Source: a virus (lineage: Duplodnaviria > Caudoviricetes). Taken from it: a stretch of DNA of 64,000 nt. Location: the IMG/VR virus record IMGVR_UViG_3300032007_000010, one strand, 5' to 3'. The translations under genes and the position numbers were made by a program. Positions 26,750-49,487 of the stretch are shown here, one piece after another (the first letter of the stretch is position 1; each line of letters starts with the position of its first letter). The notes under the pieces were generated by a model. That model was not told the origin of the DNA. It searched no databases and saw only the letters and a list, made by a program, of their open reading frames with translations.

Positions 26750-28075
26750 ATGGGAATCGTATCGGGCTTCGGAGCAAATCCCGGCATCGGAGCCGTGATT
26801 GATCTTAGGAAGAAGGTTGAACTCTGCCCGAGCATCATCGTGAATGTGCCCACCGGCAGCACGGTATCCTGCACGAAGGGTACGATCAGTCTCACCGCAC
26901 TGTCCATCGATGTTGGAGCGGAGACGGATACCCATACCTTCCAACCCACCGAGGAGGGAACCTGGACGCTGAGAGCCACGCTCGGTGAGGACGAGAGTGA
27001 AACCGAGGTGTTGGTCGAGAAGACCAACTACGAAGAGGATCTCGAATACTTCACCAATCCCATCGAGGGAAATGTTGTGCCCGGTCAGGTTGTCACCTTT
27101 GACAACAAGAGCTGGATTGTCCAGCACGTGGATGGAAACATTGCCTATTTGGCATCCAACGGGATTCTGTCCACGGGTGCGTTCAACAGCAACAGCAGAA
27201 ACGCGTACCTTGGCTCGGATCTAGCAGCCAAAGCTGCTGACTACCAAACAAACAACATGAGTGCCAAAGCGCTCAAATATTGTCAGGATGTTACCGTCAA
27301 CGGAGTTACCAGCAAGGTCTTCATTCCCTCTAAAGCTCAGTATGAATCCGAATGGAGCTGGCCGTCTGCCTCGGCGGACAACCGCAAGCAGACCGGCGGC
27401 AACAGCTGGTATTGGACCTCTTCGCCGTATCCCAACGACTCCAGCAATGTGTGGTTCGTGGATGGCAACTTCAACAGCATCATCGCCAACTATGCCGATG
27501 GCGGTTTCCGGCCCGCGGTGGCCGTGAAGTTCCGCAAGGAGATCGGAGACGGTGAATATGGTTCTTCCAAGATCGCCGGCACTCTGGAGAAGGGTCAATT
27601 CGTCAAATTTGATGGGCAGGATTGGATCGTTGCCAATGTATCTGGTTCAACCTATACGTTGATGTTGAAGAAGATGACGGAGACCACTGCATTTGGATCC
27701 AGCACAACATACTCTGGCAGCACCATCGCATCCAAGTGCACGACCTTCCAGAACGCGATGTCGGCCAATGCACTGTCAGTGGTCAACTCGAAGACGGTCC
27801 AGAGCTTCACCGCCAAGGTATGGATTGCAACAAAATCCGACATCGAATCCTGGACCGATACTGCTAATCCGACCAGTTCTGCCTGGTCTGGTATCAGAAA
27901 ATGGTCTGGAACCACTGAAGATGACTATGCCGTGTCGGGTATCTATACCTATTGGTGCTCTGATCTGGACGGTTCCAGCTTTGTCTGGGAGGCCGAGAAT
28001 CAAGGTAATTTCGGCAGCAGCGCTCCGGCTGCTGTGTTTGGCTTCCGTCCCTGTATCGAAGTCACCCAAAGCTAA
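26750..28075 (+). CDS. Tandem two-domain DGR-target protein with an internal TR-matched VR
   Basis: Domain 1 ends GGFRPAVAVKF (paralog of the 47565 gene); domain 2 ends GFRPCIEV (paralog of 25229). Confidence 0.85.
   Translation: MGIVSGFGANPGIGAVIDLRKKVELCPSIIVNVPTGSTVSCTKGTISLTALSIDVGAETDTHTFQPTEEGTWTLRATLGEDESETEVLVEKTNYEEDLEYFTNPIEGNVVPGQVVTFDNKSWIVQHVDGNIAYLASNGILSTGAFNSNSRNAYLGSDLAAKAADYQTNNMSAKALKYCQDVTVNGVTSKVFIPSKAQYESEWSWPSASADNRKQTGGNSWYWTSSPYPNDSSNVWFVDGNFNSIIANYADGGFRPAVAVKFRKEIGDGEYGSSKIAGTLEKGQFVKFDGQDWIVANVSGSTYTLMLKKMTETTAFGSSTTYSGSTIASKCTTFQNAMSANALSVVNSKTVQSFTAKVWIATKSDIESWTDTANPTSSAWSGIRKWSGTTEDDYAVSGIYTYWCSDLDGSSFVWEAENQGNFGSSAPAAVFGFRPCIEVTQS
27421..27515 (+). repeat. 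DGR variable repeat VR2 (remote, internal)
   Basis: Matches the reverse complement of TR 46493-46593 with 11 substitutions, all at TR adenines, plus an in-frame 6-nt deletion. Confidence 0.9.
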
Positions 28076-44298: not shown

Positions 44299-44666
44299 GC
44301 AGAGAACACAAGCTCAATCTCACCCGCCCCGAGTTTCTCAGAAAGATTCTCACCGAAGGAGATGACCATCGCGACATTCGTGAGTCTGATCTGATCCAGC
44401 TCATGAATCGAGGCAATGCCCTCCCCTACTGTAGCTACACGGCCATCATGGAGCTGGATATGAAACCCTCCGACATGGTCTACATCGGCATCGATGAGGA
44501 AGGAACCGTGGCCATGAAACTCTCCAGCAAGGAGCTGGCCAAGCGGGTGAAACAACAGACCAACAAGGAGGTCATCAGCATGGGCATCCACCGCTACAAG
44601 ATGCATGTGAAGATCTCCGGTGCATATGTCTTCGTGACCATCGATCAGCTCGAGGACGAGATCTAA
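44295..44666 (+). CDS. Hypothetical protein
   Basis: aaggag RBS, overlapping stop/start. Confidence 0.7.
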   Translation: MSREHKLNLTRPEFLRKILTEGDDHRDIRESDLIQLMNRGNALPYCSYTAIMELDMKPSDMVYIGIDEEGTVAMKLSSKELAKRVKQQTNKEVISMGIHRYKMHVKISGAYVFVTIDQLEDEI

Positions 44667-44674
44667 AGAAAACT

Positions 44675-44702
44675 ATCCCCTCCCAATTCGGGAGGGGATT
44701 TT
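44675..44702 (+). terminator. CCCCTCCC hairpin family copy 6
   Basis: atcccctccc-aattc-gggaggggat followed by ttt. Confidence 0.7.
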
Positions 44703-44804
44703 GTTGTGTCAAGATCAGTACCCGTCGATGGTACAAAATAATCAGAATTCAGAAGATAAAATATCACAGGGGCCTTTATTGTGCCCCTGTGATAATGTTT
44801 TGTA

Positions 44805-46217
44805 TCAATATGTAGTAAAATCGGTAAACGAAATTCTGGAATGTTCAGTACTTTTGCCTCGTTTATGAGATTTCTCATGCTTATTCTTATCCTGATAATT
44901 TCGGCTTATCGGTGGTAGCGGAAGATATCTATCGTCATCCACAACCATATCCAGATTTTCAAACTTAGCAATATCTCGCTCCATATGAACCCCAGCCCAT
45001 CGCATCTTCCTCTTTGATTTAATTGTGTTATAGAACCTATCCCCATATAGAGACCCATCTTTCTTCTTTGGTCGTTTTCGCAATATGATAAAGCCGTTAC
45101 TATCGAAATCTGTATCTTCCAGTGTGGTTCTATACTCAGCCATGGTTCTTGGTTCGAACTCTTTTCCTCCAAGCATATGCATGGTTTTCTCGTATAAATT
45201 CTTAGATTTTTCAGTTTCGCCGCGTTTTGCATGACCGTGCCATGATTCTAGCGAATCTATCGCAGCGCTGCGCTCAATGATTCCATCTTCAACCATAGCA
45301 ACATGCTTGGTGAGTTTGCGTTTTTCGTTACGTACTTTGCCAGGAAGTACTGTCATATCAACATTATGGGTACGTAGGTTGTATCTAAAATTGAACCCAA
45401 TGAATCGAATACCTTCTGCATAAGGATGGATCTGACTCTTCGGATTGAGCTCAAGATCAAGTTTCTCTTCAACGTATCTTTTGATTTCTTTGTAGCAATG
45501 CTTCAAATACTCTTTGTCCTTATGAATAAGATAAAAATCATCCATATAACGACCATAATATTTTATCTGAAGCTTCTCTTTGATAAAGTGATCGAGTCCA
45601 TTTAGATAATAGACTGCGAGCCATTGTGACGTCTGGAACCCGATGCATAGACCGCGGGTCGACCCATCAAAATCTTCGATTGCGTATATGAGAGTATGCA
45701 TGAGGTCCTGTAATTTTTTATCTATTGGTAGCTTTCGAATCATCTTCATGCAGATCTCACGATTGATTTCATAGAAAAAATGATGGATGTCGCAAGATAG
45801 TACGAACCCATTGTTGGTGTATCCCATCTCGGCAGAAAATGCATTCATGTTATGTCTAATACGCTCCTCCGCAAGTGCACTGCCTTTTCCTTCTTGTGTT
45901 GCATAGTTGTCGTATATTAGCATTGGTTGTATGGCAGGTTCTAGGACATGTTTGCACATGAGTCGTTGAACTATTTTATCTTCAAACTGATTTGCGGTTA
46001 TCTCTCGCTTCTTCGGTTCGTATATGATAAATGAGTATAGATCAGTGATACGATAGGTTCCTTTTATGAGGCGAGTATATAATTTATTGATATTTTTGGT
46101 CAGATCTAGGTGAAATTTAACAACCTCATTGCGAGTGGTCTTTCCTTGTCGACAATGGTAGTATGCTCGCAGAAGATTTTCATAGGTAACCACATCTTCA
46201 TATCTTATAACCTTCAT
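44805..46217 (-). CDS. DGR reverse transcriptase with C-terminal extension
   Basis: IYEPKKREI, DKIVQR, CDIHHFF, GLCIGFQTSQ, YGRYMDDF, LELNPK and FIGF motifs; likely start ATG 46217 (MKVIRYE). Confidence 0.95.
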   Translation of the reverse strand: MKVIRYEDVVTYENLLRAYYHCRQGKTTRNEVVKFHLDLTKNINKLYTRLIKGTYRITDLYSFIIYEPKKREITANQFEDKIVQRLMCKHVLEPAIQPMLIYDNYATQEGKGSALAEERIRHNMNAFSAEMGYTNNGFVLSCDIHHFFYEINREICMKMIRKLPIDKKLQDLMHTLIYAIEDFDGSTRGLCIGFQTSQWLAVYYLNGLDHFIKEKLQIKYYGRYMDDFYLIHKDKEYLKHCYKEIKRYVEEKLDLELNPKSQIHPYAEGIRFIGFNFRYNLRTHNVDMTVLPGKVRNEKRKLTKHVAMVEDGIIERSAAIDSLESWHGHAKRGETEKSKNLYEKTMHMLGGKEFEPRTMAEYRTTLEDTDFDSNGFIILRKRPKKKDGSLYGDRFYNTIKSKRKMRWAGVHMERDIAKFENLDMVVDDDRYLPLPPISRNYQDKNKHEKSHKRGKSTEHSRISFTDFTTY

Positions 46218-46492
46218 CTCTTGGCCTCTTAACTTTGATCTAAACGACAGTATAAACCCACCACCATACGGTGGTGTTGATCTCATCCACGTACCAGAAT
46301 CGGTGCTATTTCAACCGAGTCGGGCATATGAATGAGCGCGGGTACGTTTCTCCATTGAAGCATAGTAGAGCCTCTCCGGACAGGATACAATCTCCTTGCA
46401 CCTACGATATGCGTTCGACTGATCCAATGTGAGATCAGTTTACTAGATCGATCGCTGCTGCACGTCTATAAGACATGCAACATAGGCACAAT

Positions 46493-46593
46493 CGGGCCGG
46501 AAACCGCCATTGGTATTGTTGGCGTTGTTGTTGTTGAAGTTGCCATCGTTATTCACGTTCCACACATTGTTGGAGTTGTTGGGATTCGGCGAA
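46493..46593 (-). ncRNA. DGR template repeat (TR)
   Basis: Non-coding, AAC/AAT-rich (reads SPNPNNSNNVWNVNNDGNFNNNNANNTNGGFRP); matches two VRs except at adenines. Confidence 0.95.
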
Positions 46594-46630
46594 CTTTACT
46601 CACGTAGACCGTAACCTAATATACATATGT

Positions 46631-46666
46631 TCCCAACAACTCCTATTGGCCCGATTGTGTCTATGT
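46631..46666 (-). other. TR-leader segments antisense to both TR ends
   Basis: 46631-46643 is the exact reverse complement of 46572-46584; 46648-46666 is the reverse complement of 46480-46498 at 18/19 positions. Confidence 0.85.
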
Positions 46667-46702
46667 GAGACAACGCATTGTGTGTGATATAAATAAACAG
46701 CG

Positions 46703-47275
46703 TCATGCAGTGAATTTATCCTTTTCGTCATCAGAGTTGTTTGCTCGTTTTATCAAAACGACAAACCCATCACTATCCCTATATTTTTCCAACTCATTCC
46801 ACTGACGTTTAATCTGACCTCTCACCCAACGCTCATGTGCTCTGATAACGTATTCCTTTCTGCTTGGCAATTTACGCTTTTTGTTGTATGCATTCTTCTT
46901 TGTATATCCAAATGCCGTTTCAACCTTAGTCATCAATTCTGCCAACTCTTTCGTGTTGTTCAAATTGGTAATTCGTGTTGATAGTTGAATAAGCGATAAT
47001 AGACGATGATAATGATCTTGTGCTTTTTCAAAATGTTTTAGCTGTTTCTTCGCAGTCTTTTTGTGCTTGGGACTCATCGCAAGAGCAGTGTTTAGTTCTG
47101 CGCAAAATTCTTCGCATTCAGATAAGATTTTATCCGTTACAACAAATCGATAGCGTTTTGGTACATATTTTTCATTATTATAGACCGTAGCCAGATATTT
47201 GAATAAGTTTTCTGAATGAATGGCCACCGCATAGGGTTCACCCTTGCCCTTGGTTTTATATTTCGGCCTTGACAT
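46703..47275 (-). CDS. avd: DGR accessory variability determinant (Avd-like) with C-terminal extension
   Basis: Basic helical protein with PKRYRF...KI motif, directly upstream of TR and RT. Confidence 0.8.
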   Translation of the reverse strand: MSRPKYKTKGKGEPYAVAIHSENLFKYLATVYNNEKYVPKRYRFVVTDKILSECEEFCAELNTALAMSPKHKKTAKKQLKHFEKAQDHYHRLLSLIQLSTRITNLNNTKELAELMTKVETAFGYTKKNAYNKKRKLPSRKEYVIRAHERWVRGQIKRQWNELEKYRDSDGFVVLIKRANNSDDEKDKFTA

Positions 47276-47328
47276 AGAGCATATTCCCCCAAATATATAA
47301 TCAGCATCGCGGCCTTCGGCCGTGTTGG

Positions 47329-47342
47329 CTTATAATTGTGTC
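47329..47342 (-). promoter_or_regulatory. Putative late-type promoter driving avd-TR-RT
   Basis: GACAcaattaTAAG on the minus strand, ~55 nt upstream of avd. Confidence 0.55.
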
Positions 47343-47374
47343 TTTATATTTCAAAAATGATATAAAAATTTGAT

Positions 47375-47404
47375 GCTCCCGGGGTGATACAACACCCCGG
47401 GAGC
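47375..47404. terminator. Strong hairpin between target gene and avd promoter
   Basis: gctcccggggtg-atacaa-caccccgggagc. Confidence 0.65.
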
Positions 47405-47564
47405 AATCATGTCTGGAATCAAATAACTGGTTGCATGTATGGTCGTGGGACATAATTGTTCTCGACTACGCTTCGCTCATAACCCTGCCAATGGGCGGGT
47501 TATGGTCGGAACAAAATATGCCCACTATTGAACCTGTGTTCAAATACATGCAACAATACATCTA

Positions 47565-49079
47565 TCACGCCTGGAACTGTACTTTAACTGCGGGCCGGAA
47601 ACCGCCATTGGTATCGTTGGCGCTGAAGTAGCTGCCGAAGCTGCCATCGTAACGCACGCCCCACACAACGCTGGAGTTGCCGGGATCCGGCGTAGAGGTC
47701 CAGTACCAGCTGTTGCCGCCGGTCTGCTTGCGGTTGTCCGCAGACGCTTTTGGCCAATCCCAATCAGACTCGTACTGTGCCTTAGACGGGATGAAAACCT
47801 TGCTGGTACCACCATTGACCGTCACAGACTGGCAGTACGACATAGCTTCGCTACCGAGCGTCGTCTCATAGTTAGCGCAGGTTGTCTTGAGGATATCGGA
47901 ATTCGCGTAAACATTGCTGTTAGACGACGCAAATGCTCCGGTAGAAACGATACCATTCGACGCCAGATATGCATATTTACCGTCAACATGCTGGACGATC
48001 CAGCTCTTGCCCGCAAAGGTGACCGTAGAACCAGCAGATACCGTGCCACTGATCGGATTCACGAAGAAGCTGGCGGTGACCGAGCACGTCTTGCTTGCAG
48101 CGGTGTAGTTACCGCCGCTGGCTGTCACTGTGATCGTGGCAGTACCAGTTGTATCGTTCACGCTGCTCACCGTCACCGTGGAACCGCTGCGGCTCACTGT
48201 GACCACGCTGGTATTGTCGGAGCTGACGCTCAGCGTACCATCGTAGTTGCCGCTGATGGTGAAGGTGGTGGACTTGGTGGTGCTGTTCAGCGTGATGCTG
48301 GTCTTGCTGAGCGACATGGTGTTGGCCGCCTTGCTGATGGTGACAGTGCACTTCTTCGCCGCCGCAACCGCGGTCCAGTTTCCGTTGGTCGCATCAGCAT
48401 CCACGCGGCAATAGATGTCGTAGGAACCGGCATTGATCGCGCTGGGCAGGCTGCTGACATAGGCGCTGGAAGCCGGTGCGGAAGAACCGGCCGTGACCGC
48501 CGCGTAGAGCAGCGTACCAAAGGTGGTGGAGCCGGCATTGACCAGGGTCTGCGAAGATCCTGTGTAGGTGAGGGTCTTCGCCGTGGGAGCCGTGATGGTC
48601 GGGGTCGCCGGATTGAGCGTCCAGGTCTTGTAGACGATGCGACGATCCAGCGTGGATGCCCAGACGTATCCCTTCTTGGGTGTGAAGCCCACGGTGTAGG
48701 TACCCTGGTTGGTGGCGCTGGTGTCGCCGGAGATGGTGAGCTTGGTGGAATCGTAGTTGTTCCAGCTCGGGCTCCGGCTGGAGCCGTTGTAGGTCGGATT
48801 GCTCGCCACGGACGGCTCGACATCGATCTCCTCATTGGCAGCGGAGGTCGCCACCTCGTATGGGAGGTTGTTGATGCCAATGAAGACCTTGCTGGTACCC
48901 ACCAGGATCTTGCCCGAAGCGAGGGTCTCGGGGGCATCGTCGGTGACCTGCACCTCGGGCAGACTACCCTCAACCGTGGTGCCGTCCGGGCGCAGCACCA
49001 GGCTGCTGTCCGTCTCGAAGTGCACCGTATCATAGCTCGAGCCGTTGTAGCGATGCAGCCTCTGTTTCAGAGTTGCCAT
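47565..49079 (-). CDS. DGR target: tail-fibre/receptor-binding protein with Ig-like repeats and C-terminal CLec-like domain
   Basis: Start MATLKQRLHRYNG after ggagg RBS; VR at the 3' end. Confidence 0.9.
   Translation of the reverse strand: MATLKQRLHRYNGSSYDTVHFETDSSLVLRPDGTTVEGSLPEVQVTDDAPETLASGKILVGTSKVFIGINNLPYEVATSAANEEIDVEPSVASNPTYNGSSRSPSWNNYDSTKLTISGDTSATNQGTYTVGFTPKKGYVWASTLDRRIVYKTWTLNPATPTITAPTAKTLTYTGSSQTLVNAGSTTFGTLLYAAVTAGSSAPASSAYVSSLPSAINAGSYDIYCRVDADATNGNWTAVAAAKKCTVTISKAANTMSLSKTSITLNSTTKSTTFTISGNYDGTLSVSSDNTSVVTVSRSGSTVTVSSVNDTTGTATITVTASGGNYTAASKTCSVTASFFVNPISGTVSAGSTVTFAGKSWIVQHVDGKYAYLASNGIVSTGAFASSNSNVYANSDILKTTCANYETTLGSEAMSYCQSVTVNGGTSKVFIPSKAQYESDWDWPKASADNRKQTGGNSWYWTSTPDPGNSSVVWGVRYDGSFGSYFSANDTNGGFRPAVKVQFQA
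47591..47692 (-). repeat. DGR variable repeat VR1
   Basis: About 18-19 substitutions versus TR, all at adenines, plus one extra NNC codon in the AAC run. Confidence 0.95.
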
Positions 49080-49487
49080 GTTTATCCTCCTTTTCGATGG
49101 AATTTTGGGATGGTGTTGGCACATCCCCGTCTGGTCTGGGAACTGTTTTTGTGCGCACGAATCGAAGTCGTGGCCATTTCATACCTCCTATCTCGTAAAA
49201 ATTGTAAGAAAAACGCCCCCGGAAACGGGGGTAATGAAGGTTTTTATCTGACCGTAGGGTTTTTGGCAGAAAATCTAATACCACACATTTTGGCAGAGAT
49301 TTTCACATTGCCTTACCGCAGGTAATGACCTCTCGGGTCATAACCCTCATTTCATCATGATTTCCTGAAGCGTTCTCTTATTATTCTGTTCGGTATTTCA
49401 ATTTGTACGAGACGGGAAAGGGCCCCGGGTTGATGATGCTCAGCCCGGGACCCGGTTGTGTTCCCAGTATCGACCTAGGCTCGTTGA

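Follow-up and report, generated by a model that had tools for sequence, protein, structure and literature searches.

An antisense leader that pairs with both ends of the template repeat is a conserved add-on to a BPP-1-type DGR RNA in phages

Introduction

The window analysed here is the whole stretch of 64,000 nucleotides of the virus record IMGVR_UViG_3300032007_000010 (Duplodnaviria; Caudoviricetes). Between the avd-like gene and the template repeat (TR) of its DGR there are two neighbouring segments antisense to the two ends of the TR, and the question raised by this locus is what such a leader does to the copying of the template. The original prediction had listed three roles for these arms, namely to set the start and stop points of reverse transcription, to present the template, or to regulate the DGR; of these, regulation is the option favoured by the evidence described below. 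As for the control of the timing and frequency of mutagenic cDNA synthesis in DGRs, the one structurally solved system, that of BPP-1, shows only the catalytic RNA scaffold.

In the BPP-1 spacer, Sp47–56 pairs with TR117–129 to give the template:primer duplex with the priming A56 and, two nucleotides later, Sp59–70 pairs with avd369–379, forming the cPRT Stop (Handa et al., bioRxiv 10.1101/2023.10.23.563531). Putative cPRT Stop duplexes were reported for 207 of 278 Avd-containing DGRs, in a survey that folded 40 nt upstream and 100 nt downstream with the TR left out (bioRxiv 10.1101/2023.10.23.563531). Arms like those of the window would be missed by that survey, because they lie 40 nt or more upstream and pair with the TR itself.

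Results

The DGR cassette of the window

The minus-strand order of the cassette is target gene with VR1, terminator, avd-like gene, 110-nt leader, TR, spacer and reverse transcriptase (RT), and a second variable repeat is located elsewhere in the window:

47565..49124, minus: target gene, 519 aa, with VR1 at its 3′ end
47591..47693, minus: VR1, at the 3′ end of the 519-aa target gene
27422..27515, plus: VR2, second variable repeat from the same TR source (TR/VR comparison)
47405..47374, minus: strong terminator, upstream of the avd-like gene
46703..47275, minus: Avd-like accessory gene, 190 aa (AF2 fold, clade conservation)
46493..46592, minus: TR, 100 nt (VR1 and VR2 substitutions all at TR adenines)
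44805..46286, minus: DGR RT, ORF of 493 aa (RVT_1 match; IGFQTSQ)

Within the repeats, the substitutions of VR1 and VR2 with respect to the TR occur exclusively at TR adenines, and in addition to them there are in-frame codon indels in an AAC run. Given two diversified VRs, the DGR is evidently active. The RT fits the DGR clade by its RVT_1 match and by the (I/L)GxxxSQ motif, a hallmark of DGR RTs, which is present as an IGFQTSQ that was invariant in a 30-sequence alignment. The accessory protein gave no Pfam or PDB match at the sequence level. Its AF2 model (pLDDT 82) is a four-helix bundle with a C-terminal extension, and the best fold matches were S23-family bundles and, from BPP-1 Avd, the chains 4dwl and 8ub7/8ub8 (TM of 0.78–0.81 when normalised to the target, rmsd of 2.0–2.6 Å, weak Foldseek E-values). 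Judged from this modelled fold, the protein can be taken as Avd-type, and its family is kept across the clade described below. No terminator was found between avd and TR, and avd, TR and RT appear to form one transcription unit.

Pairing of the leader arms with the TR

The leader contains two arms, which are listed here with their targets:

46648..46666, minus: leader arm A, ACAUAGACACAAUCGGGCC, antisense to the TR 3′ end and flank (repeat finder, folds)
46644..46647, minus: inter-arm linker AAUA, 4 nt (sequence)
46631..46643, minus: leader arm B, GGAGUUGUUGGGA, antisense to TR positions 8–20 (sequence, folds)
46572..46584, minus: B′, TR positions 8–20, the target of arm B, copied into cDNA (VR changes)
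46480..46498, minus: A′, the last 6 nt of the TR plus 13 nt of flank, the target of arm A (repeat finder)

All that the original prediction had claimed about the complementarity itself was borne out. The segment 46631–46643 (tcccaacaactcc on the plus strand) is the exact reverse complement of 46572–46584 (ggagttgttggga), so that arm B (46643..46631) pairs 13/13 with 46584..46572. Four nucleotides away, arm A (46666..46648) pairs 18/19 with 46498..46480, which the repeat finder returned as 19 nt with 95% complementarity, and the single mismatch is A·C in the minus-strand RNA and G·U on the opposite strand. The arms are 57–75 nt (A) and 40–52 nt (B) upstream of the TR.

Both helices were present in the MFE and in the centroid structures of 241-nt and 491-nt minus-strand folds (z −4.3 and −6.1), and this gives the nested A-B-loop-B′-core-A′ fold that had been anticipated. 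Their duplex energies are −30.2 kcal/mol (A:A′) and −22.6 kcal/mol (B:B′); RNAduplex was noisy when run on long windows. In 1000 dinucleotide-preserving shuffles of 46440–46700, a 19-bp helix with one mismatch was never obtained (0/1000; the maximum was 15), and a perfect helix of at least 12 bp was obtained four times. A chance origin of the arms is ruled out by these shuffles together with the recurrence of the arms in relatives. The Rfam covariance models gave no match at E ≤ 1 over 46150–46800 on both strands.

Conservation and covariation in related cassettes

Homologues of the RT were taken from metagenome, IMG/VR and genome collections, and their TR/VR pairs were identified with a diagonal search that tolerates changes at adenines. 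The clade considered here is made up of nine distinct loci (W, the window, plus L002, L003, L004, L006, L007, L008, L009 and L081) which have in common the layout VR / avd-like gene / TR / RT, the accessory-protein family and RTs 41–51% identical; several of them are on phage contigs of 230–260 kb. The conservation evidence therefore consists of nine independent sequences. Genome-contig scans gave no further close relative, GenBank phages gave no relative above 39% identity, and further IMG/VR scans and a TR-pattern scan returned only known loci or unrelated DNA; database RTs 45–54% identical to that of the window also exist. The accessory-protein alignment was too divergent to be used as a search query.

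A perfect helix of at least 12 bp between the leader and its own TR was found in 8 of the 9 clade loci (0/200 shuffles for each), and in none of 44 more distant family members, where the maximum was 9 bp. These are ungapped helix counts, used in place of a gapped antisense alignment of leader versus TR that was too noisy to separate cognate from non-cognate combinations. An A-type arm, directed to the TR 3′ end and flank, is present in the window, L002, L007, L008, L009 and L081, and it is missing in L003, L006 and L004. The B-type arm measures 12–14 bp in L003, L006, L007, L008 and L009, and 10 bp in L081; it is weak in L004, where 13 of 16 pairs are Watson-Crick, and in L002 it is reduced to a local stem of 7 bp. 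A third, middle arm occurs in L007, L008, L009 and L081, again collinear with the antisense TR. Since all the arms of the clade are collinear with the antisense TR, the leader can be described as an internally deleted antisense copy of the template.

The arm sequences vary from locus to locus and in each case track the TR of their own locus. Double changes from G-C to U-A and from C-G to U-A were read from the sequences of L007, L008 and L009, and RNAalifold run on these three loci retained both helices with two compensatory pairs. So, the arms and the compensatory changes that the original prediction would have looked for in homologous DGRs do exist, and the nested fold is kept in related cassettes with covariation. 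As related phages keep the arrangement with matching sequences of their own, the antisense leader is a real add-on to a known retroelement RNA. What is not constant is the number, position and spacing of the arms: the inter-arm linker varies in sequence and in length (about 1 to 16 nt), and directly 3′ of arm A the six loci that have this arm read A, A, A, U, U and C.

The arms are nearly all Watson-Crick, with 5 G·U versus 8 A·C among 241 pairs, unlike the spacer-core helices described below, which are rich in G·U. The G·U and A·C counts were also considered as a test of the strand under selection and turned out to be uninformative for this purpose, as well as for RNA versus DNA. An origin of the arms as products of the mutagenic cDNA of the element was rejected too, as adenine-type mutation was absent from every arm position opposite a TR adenine, in all the arms.

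Another pairing of the TR was observed in the three loci that lack arm A. In them (L003:3240–3300, L006:3192–3255, L004:995–1060), a spacer segment at about +33..+46 forms 12–15 bp with the part of the TR that lies just 5′ of A′. This helix shows a compensatory change between L003 (C-G) and L006 (U-A) and, in L192, contains G·U pairs. Instead of pairing in this way, that spacer segment can fold into a local 9-bp hairpin in L007, L008 and L009.

A separate BPP-1-like core in the spacer

Concerning the points at which cDNA synthesis starts and stops, their assignment to the arms was not supported. Against it stands a separate, BPP-1-like primer/Stop core of the spacer, covarying in about 45 relatives, with the following elements in the window:

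46606..46618, minus: M1, upstream strand of a Stop-like duplex, UAGGUUACGGUCU, pairing with 46393..46381
46481..46491, minus: P1 template strand, UUGUGCCUAUG, wholly inside A′ (11 bp, −12.7 kcal/mol)
46457..46481, minus: H1, 11-bp hairpin directly after the TR, candidate Avd-binding element (predicted folds)
46396..46406, minus: spacer primer strand, CGUAGGUGCAA, followed by the GG linker 46395–46394 (pairing with P1 template)
46381..46393, minus: spacer Stop strand, AGAUUGUAUCCUG, pairing with M1 (−11.8 kcal/mol)

The primer region reads CGUAGGUGCAA-GG-AGAUUG... and forms 11 bp (46406..46396 with 46491..46481); as in BPP-1, its paired strand has an A as last base (46396), two nucleotides ahead of the Stop strand. 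The 5–11 nt that precede the GG pair with the flank right after the TR, and both strands covary in the clade and in the family: the pairing is UUGUGCC:GGUGCAA in the window, UUGUAUU:GAUACAA in L002 and UUAGUUC:GAACUAA in L003. The P1 pairing covaries in L002, L003 and L006 and across the family. The first templated base predicted from this core, A46492, adjoins the last TR base shared with the VRs (G 46493), and this coincidence of the predicted start with the end of the TR/VR homology also argues against a start set by the arms.

The M1:Stop helix (46393..46381 with 46618..46606) covers 13 positions, with two G·U pairs and one mismatch. An equivalent helix was found in about 45 of 50 non-redundant relatives with many compensatory changes, its strand being preceded by CAAAGG or CAAGG in every case, and the cognate score was 10.8 versus 7.3 for non-cognate combinations. 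The predicted hairpin H1 resembles in position and size the stem-loop to which Avd binds in BPP-1 (Handa et al., bioRxiv 10.1101/2023.10.23.563531). By analogy with BPP-1, it is most likely the spacer core, and not the leader, that sets both the start and the stop of the cDNA, and it is improbable that the leader arms correspond to the BPP-1 clamp.

The A/T-rich stretch between the arms and the TR is part of the conserved approach to M1. A phage promoter at that place was considered and found unsupported, since its motif matches the window only twice when as many as 2 mismatches are allowed, a number equalled in 18 of 100 shuffles; a sigma-70 scan gave no promoter between the arms and the TR either.

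Some further observations were made on the core and its surroundings. At the position equivalent to 46492, the TR has A and the VR has C in 9/9 clade loci, and in L004, L007, L008, L009 and L081 two or three more bases (TT or TTG) match again after it. The A/C pair resembles a fixed difference of the IMH/IMH* kind, located where initiation is predicted. As for an IMH-type pairing of the primer strand with the VR flanks, no complementarity was seen by eye. In the family-wide form of the core (about 45 loci, for instance L011, L055, L092 and L166), AGGGnnnnnCCU upstream of the TR pairs with the CAAAGG-preceded spacer strand, and a primer-like strand, a conserved GAGUAR motif and then a hairpin are also present. 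As no Rfam model matched in the window, this family-wide DGR RNA core could seed a covariance model.

Overlap of the arms with the core, and read-through of the arm B target

The leader and the core would compete for the same bases. A′ includes the P1 template strand in its full length together with the predicted start site, so that A:A′ and P1 are mutually exclusive, and the overlap of the A′ target with the P1 template is found in 6/6 loci that have an A arm. The predicted energies are −30.2 kcal/mol for A:A′ versus −12.7 kcal/mol for P1, and −108.4 kcal/mol for the closed fold versus −82.9 kcal/mol for the fold with the core enforced. M1 lies in the 46-nt loop of the B:B′ hairpin, and M1:Stop would cross both leader helices as a pseudoknot.

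The other possibility contained in the original prediction, a stop at B:B′, is ruled out by the VRs. Adenine mutations of VR1/VR2 are found at 46587/46588 and at 46580–46581, i.e. 5′ of B′ and within it, and mutations inside and 5′ of B′ are found as well in the VRs of six relatives. It follows that the RT copies through B′ and that arm B is no stop. Towards the other end of the template, 46511 is the final adenine at which a VR is mutated, and the stretch between 46509 and 46493 is free of adenines, so that the exact cDNA start cannot be read from the VRs. With respect to the preceding gene, arm A is inside the avd frame or at most about 17 nt from the avd stop codon in 5 of 6 relatives, the gap being 34 nt in the window.

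Discussion

Comparison with BPP-1 and other RNAs

The DGR of the window is itself an ordinary one and its spacer core is of the BPP-1 type; what is undescribed is the upstream antisense leader. The original prediction did not recognise the two-arm arrangement from the BPP-1 model. For the upstream position this agrees with the literature covered, as an upstream two-arm antisense leader was found neither by full-text searches nor in the BPP-1 papers examined. BPP-1 does have a clamp of two adjacent duplexes, but it comes from the downstream spacer. Like that clamp, the arms of the window are two adjacent duplexes that join the TR boundaries with the template looped out, and one continuous strand pairs with the TR 3′ end and then, a few nucleotides on, with the TR 5′ side. 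The core of the window reproduces the BPP-1 order: primer strand, 2-nt linker, and Stop strand pairing with a motif upstream of the TR (AGGG...:...UCCU).

The differences are as clear as the similarities. In BPP-1 the continuous strand comes from the downstream spacer, whereas the window adds a second such strand upstream; the leader of the window is a near-perfect antisense copy of the TR and is directed to TR positions 8–20, not to sequence outside the TR; its second duplex is read through, and arm A would compete for template bases that the spacer primer also needs. The leader arms also lack the conserved priming nucleotide and the fixed short linker of the BPP-1 clamp. As for the surveyed cPRT Stop duplexes, in which the template is closed into a loop by pairing of upstream sequence with the TR 3′ end or with what follows it, they are similar to the arrangement seen here and correspond to M1:Stop.

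Outside DGRs, there is a resemblance to attenuators and riboswitch expression platforms, in that two exclusive pairings are available to one segment and the upstream one comes first, although here the output would be the initiation of reverse transcription and not transcription or translation.

A proposed lid on the predicted initiation site

The interpretation that we favour, at a little short of an even chance, is that the leader is a conserved "anti-TR" lid, either autoinhibitory or chaperoning, by which the initiation of cDNA synthesis is gated. According to it, the leader between avd and TR would act in cis as an "anti-TR", the internally deleted antisense copy of the template, and in the avd-TR-RT transcript it would zip the TR ends into a long interrupted hairpin with the adenine-rich core looped out. 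This closed hairpin should form first during transcription, because the spacer is transcribed later than leader and TR. It could not coexist with the initiation duplex, and in naked RNA the leader would win by a wide margin. Initiation from the spacer primer would require that arm A be displaced, and RT-Avd would have to open the lid or exchange arm A against the spacer primer. In some relatives, ribosomes finishing avd might help to open it; for the window, translation-assisted opening is speculative because of the 34 nt between the avd stop and arm A. In this way the lid would control or adjust the initiation of cDNA synthesis, and the template would be held in a compact form. From the overlap we infer a competition in vivo, with regulation as its outcome.

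The variable number, position and spacing of the arms fit generic sequestration better than a precise catalytic geometry. Some precedent for the effect of sequestration is provided by the BPP-1-derived DGRec, where pairing that sequesters Sp or avd segments with the TR markedly lowers mutagenic reverse transcription (bioRxiv 10.64898/2026.06.12.731847). Two points temper the idea. The DGR is evidently active despite a lid that is about 25 kcal/mol more stable than the open form, so that the lid may belong to the productive complex and not be a brake. Moreover, the three clade members that have no arm A and pair the neighbouring TR segment with the spacer (L003, L006 and L004) count against the lid.

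A stricter form of the same idea seems possible, if rather unlikely. In it, the leader would be an autoinhibitory "anti-primer", that is, a riboswitch-like two-state RNA in which the upstream antisense copy masks the start and is opened by RT-Avd or by ribosomes terminating at avd. If this were true, mutagenic cDNA synthesis would be gated by the supply of the proteins of the element itself, and a regulatory switch built into a DGR would have been described for the first time.

Other explanations of the leader

It may be asked whether the leader is itself the priming device. In retrons the primer strand is 5′ of the template, held by a terminal inverted repeat (msr/msd a1/a2), and priming takes place from a conserved branching G at the end of the a1/a2 stem. 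The leader would be, by analogy, a permuted clamp with the BPP-1 geometry presented from the upstream side, with arm A as the primer strand, arm B as the second duplex and a nucleotide of AAUA (about 46647) priming cDNA at C46499. The likeness to retrons is real in that an upstream strand pairs with the template 3′ end and the loop is closed beside the priming site. The 5′-to-3′ order of the pairing segments equals that of BPP-1 (Sp47–56 / 2 nt / Sp59–70), and a start at 46499 is compatible with the last mutated adenine at 46511 and with the lack of adenines between 46509 and 46493. We nevertheless consider this explanation unlikely. The spacer primer-GG-Stop core is still present and covarying in the clade, so that there is nothing to replace; unlike in retrons, the nucleotide next to arm A is not conserved (A, A, A, U, U, C), and RT, accessory protein and spacer core are all of the DGR type; linker lengths span about 1–16 nt; the RT copies through B′ in the window and in six relatives; and three members have no arm A.

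A role in RNA stability or processing is a further, quite unlikely, explanation. A nearly coaxial duplex of about 32 bp could shield the A-rich template from RNases, or could be an RNase III-type site whose cleavage would free the DGR RNA from the avd-RT message. The helices are indeed long and nearly perfect in Watson-Crick terms, the leader pairs with both template ends so that only the core is exposed, and the terminator at 47405..47374 upstream, with none between avd and TR, agrees with a joint avd-TR-RT unit from which an RNA might have to be released. However, a cut inside A:A′ would split the TR from the spacer primer that the conserved core requires in cis, and no nuclease site is identifiable in the sequence; as for protection alone, it leaves unexplained the constant position of arm A on the initiation site.

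Also improbable is an element acting at the DNA level, for instance an inverted repeat that shields the TR from self-homing, or a functionless relic, that is, an inverted partial TR duplication kept by gene conversion. These readings are kept alive by the near absence of G·U pairs in the arms, in which they differ from the RNA helices of the spacer core, and they agree with a leader collinear with the antisense TR and carrying internal deletions, as a recent copy would. Against them, complementarity is kept across RTs only 41–51% identical, with different arm sequences and compensatory double changes; the segments, of 10–19 bp, are short for recombinational homogenisation; and the lack of adenine-type mutation opposite TR adenines indicates that the arms are not products of the mutagenic cDNA of the element.

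Finally, it is very improbable that the arms serve product release, re-invading the TR ends of the RNA:cDNA hybrid and freeing the cDNA ends for VR annealing, since, although they cover both template ends and the processing of the RNA-cDNA hybrid has been described as an open step (PMC12875486), only 6–7 nt of the cDNA 5′ end would be freed in the window, the arm positions vary and the proposal is purely inferential.

Returning to the lid, its interest would be that this DGR clade of jumbo phages has, on top of the scaffold, a conserved and covarying antisense leader lying on the start site, which offers a mutable handle on the regulation of initiation. With the leader, nature also provides a test of the extent to which pairing of the template restricts DGR activity, a question already encountered empirically in engineered DGR mutagenesis. 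Apart from the leader, the primer-GG-Stop core with its upstream partner is common to BPP-1 and to a large Firmicutes-type/jumbo-phage DGR family, and may aid the annotation of DGR RNAs.

Minor features of the cassette

The true start of the RT is probably near 46217, 23 codons inside the listed 493-aa ORF, to judge from a database protein 99% identical to the RT that has 470 aa. A start near 46217 would give a TR-RT spacer of about 275 nt. The extra 5′ stretch of the ORF includes a 7-bp hairpin (46276..46259).

The C-terminus of the Avd-like protein (residues ~160–175) carries a conserved RDxDGFxxL motif, and a motif of this type appears twice in the C-terminal RT extension (44805 to ~45100) of the closest homologues, with the consensus FDxxGFIKL...FRDxDGFIKL. 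This may be a small module common to the Avd-like protein and the RT.

The avd-TR-RT cassette (44500–47500) has about 40% G+C versus 55–63% in the surrounding region, including its own target gene, and this contrast suggests that the cassette was acquired separately from its targets.

Concerning the (AAC)n run, VRs differ there from their own TR by whole codons. VR1 has one codon more than the TR, and VR2 has two codons fewer, slightly upstream; in the relatives, the VR is longer than the TR by 3 nt (L002), 6 nt (L004/L005), 3 nt (L006) and 9 nt (L009). These codon indels suggest slippage at the run, adding loop-length diversity.
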